Origin: Prochloraceae cyanobacterium
GTDB lineage: Bacteria > Cyanobacteriota > Cyanobacteriia > Cyanobacteriales > JASJDA01
Direction of reading: 5' to 3'
NCBI GenBank assembly: GCA_030065755.1
Contig: JASJDA010000031.1
Coordinates: forward strand, 4,000 to 67,999
DNA length: 64,000 nt
Each line of letters begins with the position of its first letter. Position 1 is the stretch's first letter. The notes beneath the pieces are model-generated. The model was not told the origin of the DNA. It was given only the letters and a program-made list of their open reading frames with translations, and ran no database searches. The translations under genes and the position numbers were made by a program. Below, piece by piece: positions 2,432 to 60,245 of the stretch.

Positions 2432-2571
2432 GCTATCTTACCTCCTTTTACCGCTTTCCTAATATCACCAGGTAATAGATTAACCTAGTTAGTGGTGCAG
2501 TTTACGATCGAGCCATAATGCTCAACGAACTGCGATAATTATTTAGTTAGAAAATCCCATCTTAAAAATAA

Positions 2572-21324: not shown

Positions 21325-21791
21325 TAATCCGCAGAAGCCTCACATCTGTACCTGCTAAGGTCAGCGTGAGATGAATGCGTGCGAGTTGACGAAAGTCTTA
21401 TACTCTCGATGCGTAGCAAGTGAGTTTAAGACATGGAGGAAACGAGCAATCAACTTAATTTGAGAAACAGGAAAGTTCATATAACCAATATAATTGCAAG
21501 AGTTCTAGGCGATGTATAATATTTGTAATCCTCAAGATATGAGAATAGCCTCATCGGATTGAACCATTGAAAATGAAATAAACTATAGGGTTGTAACCAG
21601 AAGTCCTAGAAAACTCGGTGGAAGCGTAAAAGTTTATTTCGAGCCTAGGTGAGTAGCATTTGGCAACTACAAGAACTCTGCGGAGGGGCATCTCGTGGAG
21701 TATAAAAAAGCTCGCTTTATATCCTATGCAGAAAGCAGGAGTTGGCGAGAAGCCTACACCGTAATCTCTGATTCGGTGTAGGAGTATGTCA
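21325..21791 (+). mobile_element. 467-bp protein-less derivative of the IS200/IS605-type (tnpB) element family
   Basis: The left end (TAATCCGCAGAAGCCTCAC...GCGTGAGATGAATGCG) and right end (GAAGCC-TACACCG-loop-CGGTGTA-GGAGTATGTCA) parallel the ends of the tnpB element at 57340-57757... in full, 57340-58757. The same decamer precedes both (TTATTTAGCT here, TTATTTATCT there). Deleting exactly 21325-21791 restores the EamA frame (GSYLA|PLIPVV). Confidence 0.55.
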
Positions 21792-35303: not shown

Positions 35304-36713
35304 TTGCTATCGATGAATCTCACAGAGCCTAATTGCGGACTTAAATATCTACCATCAACTAGTTCTTCCCAATCCAAACCTCGATCGCCCAATCAAGAAC
35401 TTCTCCCTCTCACTGCCAAAGTTAACAGCCGCGACTGTCTCGAAATTGGCGGCTGCGACATAACAACTTTGGTGGAAAAATTTGGCTCTCCCCTCTACGT
35501 CTTAGATGAGTTTACCCTAAGAACTGCCTGCCGTCAGTTTCGAGATGCCTTTAAAACCTACTATCCAGGAGAATCTCAAGTCATCTATGCCTCTAAAGCT
35601 TGGAATTGTTTGGCTGTTTGTCACATTGTTAGCAGCGAGGGTTTGGGTTTAGATGTAGCCTCTGGAGGAGAACTTTACACGGCGCTGAAAGCAGGAGTCA
35701 GTCCTGAAAAAATTTATCTCCACGGAAACAATAAATCTGTCGGCGAGCTGAGCTTAGCAATTGAAAATAATTGTACGATAATCGTTGATAACTGGCTTGA
35801 GTTAAAAACATTAGCTCAAATTGGTCTCGATCGGCCAGAAACAGGGCCAATAAGCATAATGGTCAGGTTAACTCCTGGAATCGAGTGCCACACTCACGAG
35901 TATATTCGCACCGGACACATAGACAGTAAGTTTGGCTTCGATCCCAACGATATGGACGAAGTTTTTATCTTTATCAGCAAGCAACCTCAGCTCAATTTGA
36001 CTGGCTTACACGCCCATATTGGCTCGCAAATTTTTGAGTTGCAACCCCATCGAGACTTGGGGGAAGTTTTAGCGGAGTGGATGAAAAAAGCTGGCGATCG
36101 CGGCTTAAAAATAACAGAATTAAATGTAGGTTGCGGTTTGGGCATTCGCTACACTGAAACTGACGATCCACCCAGTATCGAAGAATGGGTAAAAACAGTT
36201 TCAGAAGGAGTGGTTGCTGCTTGTAAATCTCGTCAATTACCTTTACCCAAGCTGTTCTCCGAGCCAGGGAGAAGTTTGATCGGCTCTTCTTGTGTCACTG
36301 CTTATACGGTGGGTAATCGCAAAACAGTTCCCGATATTCGTACTTATGTGGCAATAGACGGGGGTATGTCCGATAATCCTCGTCCAATTACCTATGAATC
36401 TCTTTATCGAGCAGTAGTTGCTAATCGGATGTCCGATCCCCTGAAAGAGAAAGTGACAATTGCTGGAAAACACTGCGAGTCAGGAGATGTTCTGATTAAA
36501 GATTATCAGTTACCCGAAACAACTCCAGGAGATATCCTAGTGGTTATGGGCACAGGAGCCTACAATTACAGTATGGCATCTAACTACAATCGCTTGCCTC
36601 GATCGGGGGCAGTTCTAGTCAGCGAGGGAGAAGCTAACCTCATACTACAAAGAGAAACTTACGAAGATTTACTCAGGCAAGACTTATTGCCTGAACGATT
36701 GGTCATTGATTAA
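35304..36713 (+). CDS. lysA: diaminopimelate decarboxylase
   Basis: PLP-lysine region (IYASKAWN), HIGSQ, EPGRSL and CESGD motifs. The start is either the TTG at 35304 or the ATG at 35313. Confidence 0.92.
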   Translation: MLSMNLTEPNCGLKYLPSTSSSQSKPRSPNQELLPLTAKVNSRDCLEIGGCDITTLVEKFGSPLYVLDEFTLRTACRQFRDAFKTYYPGESQVIYASKAWNCLAVCHIVSSEGLGLDVASGGELYTALKAGVSPEKIYLHGNNKSVGELSLAIENNCTIIVDNWLELKTLAQIGLDRPETGPISIMVRLTPGIECHTHEYIRTGHIDSKFGFDPNDMDEVFIFISKQPQLNLTGLHAHIGSQIFELQPHRDLGEVLAEWMKKAGDRGLKITELNVGCGLGIRYTETDDPPSIEEWVKTVSEGVVAACKSRQLPLPKLFSEPGRSLIGSSCVTAYTVGNRKTVPDIRTYVAIDGGMSDNPRPITYESLYRAVVANRMSDPLKEKVTIAGKHCESGDVLIKDYQLPETTPGDILVVMGTGAYNYSMASNYNRLPRSGAVLVSEGEANLILQRETYEDLLRQDLLPERLVID

Positions 36714-56483: not shown

Positions 56484-56588
56484 CAGGGAACAGAGAACAG
56501 TGCTAGTTTTTAGGCTATTTATACCCCGCATAAGACTTAAAACGTGCGATCGATCTATCTGTTCCCTGTTGCCTATTCCCTGTTCCCC
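56484..56588. terminator. long-range inverted STRR-type repeat between convergent genes
   Basis: CAGGGAACAG (56484-56493) pairs perfectly with CTGTTCCCTG (56559-56568). Further CCCTGTT/CCTATTC units extend to 56588. It lies between the gene C stop and the cobK stop. Confidence 0.5.
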
Positions 56589-56595
56589 TTAATTT

Positions 56596-57330
56596 TCAGT
56601 TTCCAATTATCCATTTAAAAGCACTGTCAACATCAGTAACGCGATCGCCTTCTGGCATTATGGGACGTTTAATGATGACTGCAGGTAAACCCAGTTCTCT
56701 AGCAGCAATTATCTTGGCAATTGTTGCTTCACCACCGCTATTTTTGCTAACAATTGCCTCGATCTGGTATTTTTTTAACAACTGGCGCTCTTCTGTTAAA
56801 TCAAAAGGGCCTCTTTCCAATAATAAATGTCCCTTGGGAATTGGTTTATCGGATGCTGGAGGTTCGATCGTTCGCATCAGAAACCAAATATCCTCTAAAT
56901 AACTAAAAGCAGCTAATTCTTGTCTGCCAATAGCCAGAAAGACTCGCTTTGCCAAACCTGGAAGTACGGCTACAGCAGCTTTAAAGTCATTTACTTCAAT
57001 CCAGCGATCGCCTTTTATTGGTTGCCATGGGGGACGCACTAACATTAAATGGGGAATACCACAGATTTTTGCTGCTATAGCCCCATTAAAGGAAATTTGT
57101 GCTGCAAAAGGATGGGTCGCGTCAATAAGTAGAGCGATCGCATTATTTCGTAGATAAGTCACTAAGCCTTCTGTTCCGCTAAAACCTCCTATTCTAGTGG
57201 GTACGTGAATCTTGGCTGGCTGACTAGTTCTACCTGCTAGAGAAACAATAACTTCTATTCCCTCAATAGTTGAAGCTTTAACAGCTAATTGAGAAGCCTC
57301 TGTGGTTCCACCCAAGATTAAAACTCGCAT
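56596..57330 (-). CDS. cobK: precorrin-6A / cobalt-precorrin-6A reductase
   Basis: MRVLILGGTTEA start, a length of 244 aa, and a CobK/CbiJ-like sequence throughout. Confidence 0.85.
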   Translation of the reverse strand: MRVLILGGTTEASQLAVKASTIEGIEVIVSLAGRTSQPAKIHVPTRIGGFSGTEGLVTYLRNNAIALLIDATHPFAAQISFNGAIAAKICGIPHLMLVRPPWQPIKGDRWIEVNDFKAAVAVLPGLAKRVFLAIGRQELAAFSYLEDIWFLMRTIEPPASDKPIPKGHLLLERGPFDLTEERQLLKKYQIEAIVSKNSGGEATIAKIIAARELGLPAVIIKRPIMPEGDRVTDVDSAFKWIIGN

Positions 57331-57339
57331 TATTTATCT

Positions 57340-58757
57340 TCTTCCCGCGAGAATACCCACGCTTTCAGCGTGTGGATGAATCGCAGGGCAGCCCTTTTAG
57401 TATTATCTTTAATCTTACAGAAAGCTATGTTAAAATGTAAGTTGTAAATAACTAACTATTGTAAGGGATGTTTTTTATTTTTAATTAGGGAACCCTTTTT
57501 CAAATAATTATTTTCCGTAAATGACCGAACGCGCCTACAAATATCGGTTTTACCCAACTCCAGAGCAAGAAAATCTCTTGCGACGGACGATAGGTTGCGT
57601 TCGTTTGGTTTACAACAAAGCTTTGGCAACTAGAACTGAAGCATGGTACTCCAAAAAAGAGAGGGTCGGCTACAAAGAAACCTCTAGTTTTTTGACTGCT
57701 TGGAAAAAGACTACTGAACTTAACTTTCTTAACGAGGTAAGCTCTGTACCCTTGCAGCAATGCCTTAGAAATCTGCAAAAAGCATTTGCTAACTTCTGGG
57801 GAAAGAGAGCTAGATATCCTCGGTTTAAGAAAAAGCGCTCGGGGGGGTCGGCTGAGTTTACCAAGTCTGCATTTAAATGGAAAGATGGTAAATTGTGGCT
57901 TGCTAAGTGTAAGGAACCACTCAATATAGTCTGGTCTAGATATTTGCCTGATGCTTGTGCCCCATCTACAGTAACAGTCAAATTCGAGCCATCGGGAAGA
58001 TGGTATATTTCTTTGCTGATAAATGACCGAACCATTGAGAAATTCCCACCAACTGACAAGAAAGTTGGCATTGATGTAGGTATTTCTCGATTGATTAGTA
58101 CCAGCGACGGGGATTTGATAGCTAATCCCAAGCATTTCAATCGGCTGTATCAAAAGCTTAAAAGAGCGCAAAAGGTATTGAGTCGGAAGACCAAAGGCTC
58201 TAATAATCGACATAAAGCGCTACAGATAGTAGCTAAGATACACACTCAAATCAAAGATGCTCGTACCGATTTCCTGCACAAGTTGACTACTTCGTTGGTT
58301 AGAGAAAATAGCCTTATTGCTATTGAAGACTTGGGGGTTAGAAACATGGTTAAACTCCGCAAGTTGGCTCGGTCTATATCCGATGCTGCTTGGGGGGAGA
58401 TGTTTCGTCAACTTGAGTATAAGTGTGAGTGGTACGGGCGAGAATTGGTTAAAATTGACCGATTCTATCCCAGCAGTAAAAGATGTAATCAATGTGGTTT
58501 TGTAGTCGCTCGATTGCCCCTCGACGTTCGCAGTTGGGATTGCCCTAGCTGTGGAACTACAGGCATAGACCGCGACATCAATGCTGGAAAAAATATCTTG
58601 GCTGCAGGGCTTGCAGTTTCTGTCTGTGGAGCGGACATAAGACCTGATAACCATAGTGTTAAAGGGCAGTTGCGAAAAACTCGTACATCGAGAAGGAAAC
58701 AGAAACCCAGATCGTGAGGTTTGGGAATCCCGCGTCAAGGAGCGCGGGAGGATGTCA
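57340..58757 (+). mobile_element. IS200/IS605-family tnpB-only element (IS1341-like), 1418 bp by inferred boundaries
   Basis: The left end has a subterminal hairpin CCACGC-TTTCA-GCGTGTGG followed by GATGAATCGC. The right end is GAATCCCGCG-TCAAGGAG-CGCGGGAGGATGTCA (58725-58757). Boundaries were set by comparison with the 21325-21791 copy. No tnpA is present. Confidence 0.7.
57521..58717 (+). CDS. tnpB: RNA-guided DNA endonuclease TnpB (IS605 OrfB family)
   Basis: N-terminal YKYRFYPTPEQENLLRRTIGCVRLVYN (OrfB HTH). The RuvC triad contexts are GIDVGI, IAIEDL and DRDINAGKNI. The zinc ribbon is CNQCG...CPSCG. Confidence 0.92.
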   Translation: MTERAYKYRFYPTPEQENLLRRTIGCVRLVYNKALATRTEAWYSKKERVGYKETSSFLTAWKKTTELNFLNEVSSVPLQQCLRNLQKAFANFWGKRARYPRFKKKRSGGSAEFTKSAFKWKDGKLWLAKCKEPLNIVWSRYLPDACAPSTVTVKFEPSGRWYISLLINDRTIEKFPPTDKKVGIDVGISRLISTSDGDLIANPKHFNRLYQKLKRAQKVLSRKTKGSNNRHKALQIVAKIHTQIKDARTDFLHKLTTSLVRENSLIAIEDLGVRNMVKLRKLARSISDAAWGEMFRQLEYKCEWYGRELVKIDRFYPSSKRCNQCGFVVARLPLDVRSWDCPSCGTTGIDRDINAGKNILAAGLAVSVCGADIRPDNHSVKGQLRKTRTSRRKQKPRS

Positions 58758-58773
58758 AGTAAGATAAGTTCCA
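58560..58773 (+). ncRNA. putative omega-RNA (right-end RNA) scaffold plus flank-derived guide; the 5' limit is a guess
   Basis: In characterised TnpB systems, the guide RNA overlaps the tnpB 3' end and the right end and reads into the flank. Here the conserved terminal hairpin ends at 58757, and the 16 nt beyond it are AGTAAGATAAGTTCCA. Confidence 0.35.
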
Positions 58774-58800
58774 GAAGTATTTTTAAAGCATTAAACCTAT

Positions 58801-58835
58801 TTCTGACTTCTGACTTCTGACTTCTGACTTCTGAC
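58801..58835. repeat. tandem heptamer (TTCTGAC) x5
   Basis: Five perfect units counted by hand, ending 8 nt before the cbiD ATG. Confidence 0.9.
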
Positions 58836-58843
58836 TTCGTATA

Positions 58844-59941
58844 ATGGCTCGTAAAGGTTACACCTTATCTGTTTTTGCTGTTGCTGCTGCTAAAGCTGCT
58901 TTGCTGCATCTACAAGAGAAAATGAATTCCGAACCAGTAGTGTGTCTCGATCTGCTACCAGAAAGCGCAGAGATACCCATTCAGCAGCTAGCTATTTTAG
59001 ATTCTACTAGTGCTTTGGCAATTACTACTAGCGATCCAGGTGATAATTTAGATCTAACTCGCAATACACCAATTTGGGCGTTGGTTAGGACGAGCGATCG
59101 CGTTTCTGATGCTTTAATTCTAGAAGCTGGTGAGGGTTTGGGTAAAACAGTAACGGGAGATCCTGCTATTTATAGTTTTGCTCGTCGCTTATTTGAGGCT
59201 AATTTATTACCAATAATTCCTGCAGATAAAACTGTAACGGTTTCAATTATTTTGCCTTTCGGTCGTCAACTGGCTCAACGGACTTCAAACGAAGCATTTG
59301 GCATTCTCGAAGGACTTGCTTTACTTGGAACTAGCGGTATATCTCAACCTCTATCGGCAGCCGATCGTCTAGAAGAATTTCGCCTAGATCTGCAGAATAA
59401 AGTAAAAGATCGCTCAAATCTAGTATTTTCTATTGGTAGCAATGGCGTGCGCGTTGCTCAAAAATTAAGTATTCCAGAAGAAACCATCGTCCAAACTGGT
59501 AATTGGATTGGTGCAATGCTGGTAGAAGCTGGGTTACGGGGTGCTAATTCAGTGCTTTTGCTTGGCTATCAGGGTAAGTTAATCAAGCTAGCTGGCGGAA
59601 TTTTTAATACGTCCAGTCATTTAGCCGATGCCAAACTAGAAATTATTAGTGCTGCTGTTGCTTCTGTTGGTGGCGATCGCAATGCGATTAAAAGTGTCTT
59701 GGCTGCGCAAACTGCAGATTCGGCTTATAAAACACTAGTGCAATTACAATTAGCTGAGTCAGTTTTTACATTACTAGCAGATAAAATTAGTCACAAAGCT
59801 ACTGCTTACGTTCAAAAGTATGCCGATGTATCTCTAAAAATAGGTACTATTCTCTTCGATCGTCAGGGTCACATTATTGTTAGAGATGCAATAGCCAAGG
59901 AACTGATAAATAAGTTGACGCGACCCGATAAAAAGAAATAA
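58844..59941 (+). CDS. cbiD: cobalt-precorrin-5B (C1)-methyltransferase
   Basis: GYTLSVFAVAAAKAALLHL N-terminus, GLALLGTSGI, and a CbiD-like length of 365 aa. Confidence 0.85.
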   Translation: MARKGYTLSVFAVAAAKAALLHLQEKMNSEPVVCLDLLPESAEIPIQQLAILDSTSALAITTSDPGDNLDLTRNTPIWALVRTSDRVSDALILEAGEGLGKTVTGDPAIYSFARRLFEANLLPIIPADKTVTVSIILPFGRQLAQRTSNEAFGILEGLALLGTSGISQPLSAADRLEEFRLDLQNKVKDRSNLVFSIGSNGVRVAQKLSIPEETIVQTGNWIGAMLVEAGLRGANSVLLLGYQGKLIKLAGGIFNTSSHLADAKLEIISAAVASVGGDRNAIKSVLAAQTADSAYKTLVQLQLAESVFTLLADKISHKATAYVQKYADVSLKIGTILFDRQGHIIVRDAIAKELINKLTRPDKKK

Positions 59942-60245
59942 CAAGAAGCAGACCGTTTTAGAAAAAGAATAATTTCAGATTTAATAAATATTTTAGGATC
60001 GAAAAAAATTACCAAAATTACTCCGCCCGCATAAGCTATCATTGTAGTATGGCACAAGTATTCTAGAGTTGATGACTCAAGTGAAGTTATCTTGAGAAAT
60101 CTCCAAAGAACATGGAGAAAAATCCTAGCATCGAAATTAAATCAATGATAAAACTCGATCGGGATATGTGTGAAAAAAGTACTCGATCGCAAGAAAATAA
60201 TGCAATTTATTAGCTCGCTCTCCAAAAATCGAGCATAACAGTAAT

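Follow-up and report, generated by a model that had tools for sequence, protein, structure and literature searches.

In this work, the divergent genes cobK and cbiD were analysed in a 64,000-nucleotide stretch of DNA (the window) from contig C270 of a metagenome-assembled cyanobacterial genome (8.46 Mb, 455 contigs, 96.6% complete). CbiD and CbiJ carry out consecutive steps of the early-cobalt-insertion corrin pathway. In the window, the space between the two genes holds an insertion sequence (IS), and the locus is composed of the following features.

56596 to 57330, minus strand: cobK (cbiJ), cobalt-precorrin-6A reductase, 244 aa, intact (Pfam CbiJ, 4e-70, full length)
57333 to 57337, plus strand: TTTAT, the target or TAM directly 5' of the left end of the element, within the 7-nt cobK leader (57331 to 57337)
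57338 to 58758, plus strand: whole IS200/IS605-family element (IS1341-type, tnpB-only), 1,421 bp, without target-site duplication (defined by the empty allele L075)
58801 to 58835, plus strand: heptamer array (TTCTGAC)x5 in the native spacer and cbiD leader, outside the IS and identical in the empty allele L075
58844 to 59941, plus strand: cbiD, cobalt-precorrin-5B C1-methyltransferase, 365 aa (Pfam CbiD, 3e-67)

Both biosynthetic proteins scored well above the cut-offs of their family models, CobK with 326 bits against NCBIfam NF005968 (cut-off 231) and CbiD with 305.8 bits against TIGR00312 (cut-off 200). The closest CobK relatives, at 76% identity, carry the names Xenococcaceae, Stanieria, and Hydrococcus. 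An earlier sequence-only reading of this DNA had put the cobK start codon at 57328 to 57330, and this position was confirmed by the list of open reading frames together with the Pfam and NCBIfam matches. An in-frame TAA lies two codons 5' of the ATG, and the same start position is used in the congener G002. The genome contains a single match to cobK, and CbiC is encoded on the same contig. The search of the 96.6%-complete genome found MetH and did not find MetE. Many arrays resembling (TTCTGAC)x5 occur genome-wide.

Limits of the element and its empty site

The 90%-identity cluster of CobK holds four further sequences besides that of the window, and the contigs of these sequences supplied the empty site. 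The GTDB relatives were too distant for this purpose, the best being the congener G002 with a CobK identity of 71%, and an exact-pattern scan of species-representative genome contigs for the site gave no match. The exact empty site was found in L075, a metagenome contig of a closely related strain, and reads ...CGCAT TATTTAT|GTAAGATAAG..., or, in the orientation of the window, ...CTCGCAT TATTTAT GTAAGATAAGTTCC.... The 92-nt spacer of L075 equals window positions 57331 to 57337 joined to 58759 to 58843, with 92 of 92 positions identical, and the coding flanks align without gaps at 95.1% identity. Because the spacer of L075 is the two window flanks joined together, the element extends exactly from 57338 to 58758 and lies 3' of TTTAT, which L075 keeps just before GTAAGATAAG, and no duplication of the target accompanies it.

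The other copies in the genome agree with these limits at both ends. The leftmost 80 nt of the copy in the window (57333 to 57413) match loci that all open with TTTATC TTCTTCCCGCGAGAA... and are preceded by unrelated sequence, and TTTAT followed by C precedes every genomic copy with the same left-end type as the window element (9/9). At the right end, the terminus ...GGAGGATGTCAA, closing with ...GGATGTCAA, is common to at least 18 copies with unrelated flanks beyond it, and all right ends close with ...GGGAGGATGTCAA. Since the flanks diverge straight after the shared end in the 18 aligned copies, the right terminus is placed at 58758. Another element of the window, at 21325 to 21791, was also considered as an aid for defining the target; it has another end type and was of no help.

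The sequence-only reading had described a tnpB-only IS inserted between the divergent cobK and cbiD and adjoining the cobK start, and the empty allele proves this for what is an IS200/IS605-type element. Its measurements needed correction by L075. The element had been limited to 57340 to 58757, but it starts 2 nt further left and ends 1 nt further right; it is indeed close to the cobK ATG, but at a distance of 7 nt instead of 9 nt; and the pair was divergent before the insertion as proposed, with a spacer of 92 nt and not of about 95 bp.

TnpB, element ends, and genomic copies

The anatomy of the element and of its right flank is as follows.

57344 to 57388, plus strand: left-end subterminal imperfect hairpin, 45 nt, CCCGCG..CCCACGC-TTTCA-GCGTGTGG..CGCAGGG (single-stranded DNA fold of -12.3 kcal/mol, z -2.6)
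57428 to 57436, plus strand: TGTTAAAAT, candidate extended -10 promoter for tnpB, its function suggested by the sequence
57465 to 57520, no strand assigned: nested insert of 56 nt that separates the promoter region of tnpB from its ATG, with GTAA on both sides (from comparison with paralogues)
57521 to 58717, plus strand: tnpB, 398 aa, intact, predicted gene of an RNA-guided nuclease (Pfam HTH_OrfB_IS605, OrfB_IS605, and Cas12f1-like_TNB)
58601 to 58758, plus strand: predicted omega-RNA-like scaffold spanning the 3' end of tnpB and the right end of the element (common fold of 8 copies from the genome)
58759 to 58774, plus strand: predicted guide or target GTAAGATAAGTTCCAG, the first 16 nt of the flank, its position expected from the established TnpB/omega-RNA mechanism and its length presumed

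The TnpB protein matched the NCBIfam model guided_TnpB with 359.6 bits (cut-off 100). Its residues 3 to 366 align to residues 4 to 375 of the 408-aa chain in the structures of TnpB from ISDra2 (8EXA, 8BF8, 8H1J; E 3e-72), the IS200/IS605 element of Deinococcus radiodurans. D185, E269, and the DRD motif with D350 and D352 are aligned with the RuvC motifs of ISDra2 TnpB (8EXA/8BF8), and the four cysteines of the zinc ribbon (C322, C325, C341, and C344) are all present. The protein contains the HTH/WED-REC part, the split RuvC with D-E-D, and the zinc-ribbon TNB domain of TnpB nucleases. The alignment thus bears out the earlier claim of an intact TnpB with RuvC D/E/D residues and a zinc ribbon. 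The tnpB gene is the sole open reading frame between ends of the family type, as in IS1341 elements; the other frames are antisense and without family support.

The last 158 nt of the element (58601 to 58758) have a conserved multi-hairpin fold in which 8 of 44 pairs are covered by compensatory double changes, in a region that is partly coding. The predicted structure fits an omega-RNA scaffold. The Rfam scan of positions 56500 to 60000 returned only a chance match to mir-27 and neither a riboswitch nor an omega-RNA family. The TAM-plus-target junction is visible in L075, where GTAAGATAAGTTCCAG follows TTTAT. If the known TnpB mechanism applies here, the empty allele (TTTAT + GTAAGATAAGTTCCAG) would serve as a cleavage target for TnpB with its omega-RNA, which would favour retention of the element.

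Both ends carry subterminal imperfect hairpins and not terminal inverted repeats, and insertion took place 3' of a short conserved target without its duplication (L075), as is characteristic of the IS200/IS605 family. The left-end hairpin is conserved in five other copies (on C134, C80, C19, C386, and C165). The right-end hairpin lies at 58729 to 58748, with GAAT just 5' of it (58725 to 58728) and the cleavage tetranucleotide TCAA at 58755 to 58758. In the stem of the terminal hairpin, the sequence varies while the pairing is kept in 18 copies. The candidate -10 element of tnpB is kept as TGnTAAAAT in the paralogous copies on five other contigs (C399, C344, C167, C319, and C113). None of the paralogous tnpB copies contains the 56-nt insert. 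Over its first ~47 nt it corresponds to a single arm of a MITE (ATTTTTAATTAGGGAACCCTT...) that is abundant in the genome, with more than 50 matches and with inverted arms in the full copies.

The one family feature that the element lacks is a TnpA encoded within it. No match to the Y1 transposase (PF01797) was obtained on contig C270, in agreement with the earlier observation that the window has no tnpA. The genome search that the sequence-only reading had proposed gave 16 Y1_Tnp matches elsewhere, at least 11 of them full-length, and neither the left-end nor the right-end motif of the window element lies within 3.5 kb of any of the 12 best tnpA loci. Because no tnpA lies within it, the element is non-autonomous and belongs to the IS1341 type, a recognised subgroup of IS200/IS605. 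From the known working of the family, mobilisation would be achieved by one of the Y1 TnpA transposases of the genome acting in trans on the hairpin ends.

The genome contains several tnpB copies with 76-89% DNA identity to the window copy, and five other full-length tnpB frames with 78-92% amino acid identity. Matches to the tnpB family were found in 14 of 41 related genomes. The tnpB body in the window is 86-89% identical at the DNA level to copies whose left end is of another type (TCATC|TGATTTCG...) and whose right-end hairpin is longer. Since the closest tnpB copies carry these other ends, the ends and bodies of the elements are modular. Moreover, mini derivatives of 41, 52, and 87 nt are made up of the window-type left and right ends joined to each other, and this shows that the two ends work as a pair.

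By comparing the element with known systems, the nearest likeness is found in ISDra2. Besides the TnpB alignment with its retained RuvC acidic residues and zinc finger, both elements sit 3' of a T-rich target of 5 nt that is not duplicated, and the guide-RNA scaffold, which is predicted for the window element, extends over the 3' end of tnpB and the right end. Unlike ISDra2, the window element has no tnpA, its target is TTTAT and not TTGAT, and its nuclease activity and TAM are predicted. IS608 from Helicobacter pylori is the mechanistic model for IS200/IS605 ends. The window element shares with it the subterminal hairpins in place of terminal inverted repeats, a left end abutting a T-rich tetra- or pentanucleotide, and a right end closing with TCAA; the GAAT 5' of the right-end hairpin and the terminal TCAA presumably correspond to the guide and cleavage tetranucleotides of IS608. 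In contrast, IS608 has tnpA and inserts after TTAC. The IS1341 group and the PATE or stand-alone omega-RNA derivatives, which are frequent in cyanobacteria, are similar in having tnpB as the sole gene, several diverged copies per genome, and mini derivatives made of ends only, whereas the window copy joins its own ends and a nested MITE fragment to a tnpB body resembling that of copies with other left ends. The element has all testable defining features of a non-autonomous IS200/IS605 (IS1341-type) element, and it is not a new kind.

Expression of cobK next to the element

With the IS in place, cobK is cut off from all that lies upstream of it. The sequence-only reading concluded that cobK must be expressed from a promoter inside the element, and that the purine-rich run before its ATG was largely contributed by the first bases of the IS. 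Two candidate promoters bear on the first of these claims.

57412 to 57440, minus strand: weak candidate outward-facing promoter in the left end, TTACAT-17-TAAGAT, 8/12 (read by eye, below the threshold of the scanner)
58994 to 59021, minus strand: candidate native cobK promoter within the cbiD coding region, TTGCCA-16-TAAAAT, 10/12 (consensus match only)

TTGCCA-16-TAAAAT (59021->58994) is the best sigma-70-like match pointing at cobK; both of its hexamers are unchanged in the related contig L073, and one base is different in G002. The numbers of promoter matches are about those expected by chance, 3 against 1.0 +/- 1.0 in one scan and 3 against 2.7 +/- 1.6 in the other. On the plus strand, CTGACT-17-TATAAT (58817 to 58845) was rejected as a promoter for cbiD because its -10 hexamer overlaps the cbiD ATG.

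The dependence of cobK on the spacer can be judged from strains in which the spacer is absent. L073 and L074 have no spacer and read, in window orientation, ...CTCGCAT T ATGGCTCG..., so that the start codons of cobK and cbiD are 1 nt apart; their flanking genes are 94.5-98.4% identical to those of the window. In the congener G002, cbiD and cobK are likewise divergent, there is no IS, and the 36-nt spacer is unrelated and cannot be aligned; the pair is divergent in G006 and G039 as well, where the spacers are longer. Because the spacer measures 1 nt in L073 and L074 and 36 nt in G002, it is not the sole home of the cobK promoter in this lineage. A promoter in the spacer would thus be dispensable, and any promoter of cobK would then lie in the coding DNA of cbiD. 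Across the IS, the minus strand has only one weak terminator-like site (a 5-pair stem, 58233->58219), and in the minus orientation no U-run follows either of the end hairpins. Given the 10/12 match in cbiD and this single weak site, read-through across the IS appears at least as plausible as a promoter within it. The promoter inside the element is therefore plausible and not necessary, contrary to the earlier claim, as the strains with a 1-nt spacer and the two matches (10/12 in cbiD, 8/12 inside the IS) indicate.

The cobK gene is probably still expressed, because it is intact, it is the only copy, and the genome is MetH-only and B12-dependent. We hypothesize that transcription would start in the 5' coding region of cbiD and run through the IS, antisense to tnpB, into cobK. 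This is the route that we prefer, at odds a little below even. The 1.65-kb antisense leader of such a transcript would collide with tnpB transcription, which speaks against read-through.

The main alternative would be a rewiring of cobK expression, in which a promoter in the left part of the IS faces outward and drives cobK while the IS end supplies the ribosome-binding site. This we consider unlikely. The IS end is 7 nt from the cobK ATG and provides GGGAAGAAG at -8 to -16 (reverse complement of 57338 to 57346), the minus strand carries the TTACAT-17-TAAGAT match (57440->57412), and cobK is intact and probably needed. This match is the best outward one within the IS, but it reaches only 8/12, too little to pass the scanner's threshold, and other copies with the same type of left end neither conserve it nor adjoin gene starts. 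As to the ribosome-binding site, the empty allele has CTTATCTTAC where the filled allele has GGGAAGAAG, so the earlier claim holds for the origin of the run in the IS, although the run is wholly and not largely IS-derived. The predicted pairing with the generally known anti-Shine-Dalgarno sequence of the 16S 3' end changes only from -3.8 kcal/mol in the empty allele to -5.2 kcal/mol in the filled one and is weak in both, and the GGG of this run is itself base-paired where the antisense RNA folds into the left-end hairpin. The predicted Shine-Dalgarno gain from the IS end is thus marginal. A pairing of the antisense RNA at 57407 to 57415 with cobK codons 3 to 5 (57315 to 57323) was dismissed as chance, with a whole-fold z of -1.9 and a motif that is absent from other copies. 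Outward promoters are known from the enterobacterial IS1, IS2, IS5, and IS10, and there, as here, an IS end lies directly upstream of a gene cut off from its native DNA; unlike these, the window IS yielded no convincing outward promoter. IS200/IS605 elements are not known to activate a neighbour in this way.

It is also improbable, somewhat more so than the rewiring, that the insertion silences or strongly reduces cobK, so that the cells survive on imported corrinoids or leaky expression and cobK is intact only since the insertion is recent. Strains whose flanks are 95-98% identical differ in whether they carry the insertion, which hence appears evolutionarily young, and no convincing promoter lies close to cobK. 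Against silencing, the filled allele is present in three assemblies that differ by SNP patches, with cobK intact in all three; cobK is the only one in a genome with MetH and without MetE; and the one predicted terminator-like site that could block read-through is weak.

Natural alleles and their meaning

The insertion is real, and closely related wild strains differ at the site, with filled, precisely empty, and spacer-less alleles among them. Besides the window, the filled allele is carried with identical junctions by two more assemblies, L071 (99.3% identity) and L072 (99.5%), the former with a patch of paralogue-like SNPs within tnpB. The spacer-less L074 and the filled L072 come from the same metagenome assembly, so these two alleles co-occur. 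Aligned across all alleles, cobK shows a visibly mosaic pattern, which indicates recombination, and for this reason the ordering of the three alleles on a tree was dropped; the mosaic does not allow the age of the insertion or the direction of the spacer change to be ordered.

By comparing the spacer-less allele with the 92-nt allele, a gap of 90 nt was found, with a 2-nt AT overlap at the junction. One could read the three alleles as the whole 'peel, paste, cut' cycle of TnpB at one locus. TnpB and omega-RNA would cut the empty site, the break would be healed by the 90-nt deletion at the AT microhomology, and the deletion would remove the target, so that the site could no longer be cut and the spacer-less allele would be a repair scar. 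We regard this reading as very improbable.

A chimeric assembly, or an ancestral arrangement instead of a transposition, is effectively refuted as the origin of the apparent insertion. In its favour are the 455 contigs of the metagenome-assembled genome, the many paralogous IS copies in it, and the paralogue-like patch of L071 in tnpB, but L071 and L072 independently carry the same junctions as the window, a precise empty site exists on the related contig L075, and the congener G002 has the divergent pair without the IS.

The account that we favour is that of a non-autonomous 1,421-bp IS1341-type element that is inserted in the 92-nt cobK-cbiD spacer, encodes an intact TnpB, is polymorphic among strains, and probably leaves cobK expressed; we assign it, as a whole, a probability of about 85%. 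Cyanobacteria very commonly carry IS200/IS605 elements with tnpB alone, and it is routine for insertions to fall in promoter regions. The polymorphism described here is an ordinary one for an IS and means little beyond correct annotation. Only two points are unusual, the natural empty site that defines TAM and guide, and the spacer-less allele. The first provides, for an intact TnpB of a cyanobacterium, a TAM and guide (TTTAT + GTAAGATAAGTTCCAG) that can be used in experiments. Together, the filled, empty, and spacer-less alleles, which co-exist within a single set of metagenomes, are a natural experiment that could reveal how a gene pair of the B12 pathway tolerates it when the whole of its intergenic control region is lost or disrupted.

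Apparent exchange of ends and tnpB bodies among element copies

The window IS (57338-58758) was compared with other copies in its own genome. The tnpB bodies on contigs C399 (35270-36794), C344, C167, C319, and C113 share 86-89% DNA identity with the window copy, although their left end is unlike that of the window, TCATC|TGATTTCGGCG... with a GGGGGAGG hairpin, and their right-end hairpin is longer. Since similar tnpB bodies are found with different ends, the ends and the nuclease gene look to have been shuffled among element lineages. In addition, the window-type ends occur in much shorter elements of the same genome:

C165:8177-8217, mini-element, 41 nt
C357 ~36132-36184, minus strand, mini-element, 52 nt
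C165 ~2481-2567, minus strand, mini-element, 87 nt
C134:73418-74036, element of 619 bp bounded by a window-type left end and right end

The mini-elements consist of nothing but the first 11-30 nt of the window-type left end joined to the right-end hairpin and GTCAA. Inside the C134 element, a small ribbon-helix-helix-like ORF runs on the opposite strand, and its final codons (..GLPRDSSAR*) are formed by the window-type left-end hairpin; C80:16256-16330 keeps the homologous 19-codon tail (MSEVVRDFIKGLPRDSSAR*). The differences between the two copies are mainly synonymous or conservative.

Left part of the window IS

Two further features were located in or next to the left part of the window element:

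57465-57520, MITE-arm insert, 56 nt, separating the tnpB ATG from its promoter region, with GTAA repeated at both sides
57315-57323 and 57407-57415, 9-bp inverted repeat (AAGATTAAA / TTTAATCTT), one arm in cobK codons 3-5, the other inside the left end of the IS

One arm of a MITE makes up the insert. This MITE has inverted ends (ATTTTTAATTAGGGAACCCTT...) and >50 genomic matches; the insert itself is absent from every paralogous tnpB copy. The arms of the inverted repeat pair in the predicted antisense RNA. The repeat is probably due to chance (whole-fold z -1.9).

Variation at the cobK-cbiD locus

Two very different types of cobK occur in the order. The window type was identified in 11 of the 41 genomes (G001-G040 and the window's own, which is counted here), with 54-71% identity among relatives, and the cobK of the remaining genomes, including G001 of the same genus, is only 25-32% identical to it.

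Both related contigs carrying the IS contain dense SNP patches relative to the window, namely 31 SNPs inside tnpB in L071 (counterpart of 57916-58399) and 13 inside cobK in L072 (counterpart of 56845-56991). The cobK patch has variants in common with L073 and with the empty-site contig L075. Together, the patches and common variants suggest that strains or IS copies have exchanged sequence by recombination or gene conversion, or else that the assemblies are mixed.

The entire cobK-cbiD spacer is absent from two closely related metagenome contigs (L073:2997-3003 and L074:372-378, counterpart of window 57328-58846), in which the divergent start codons are separated by 1 nt (CAT-A-ATG). With this arrangement, the promoters and ribosome-binding regions of cobK and cbiD would have to lie inside each other's gene.
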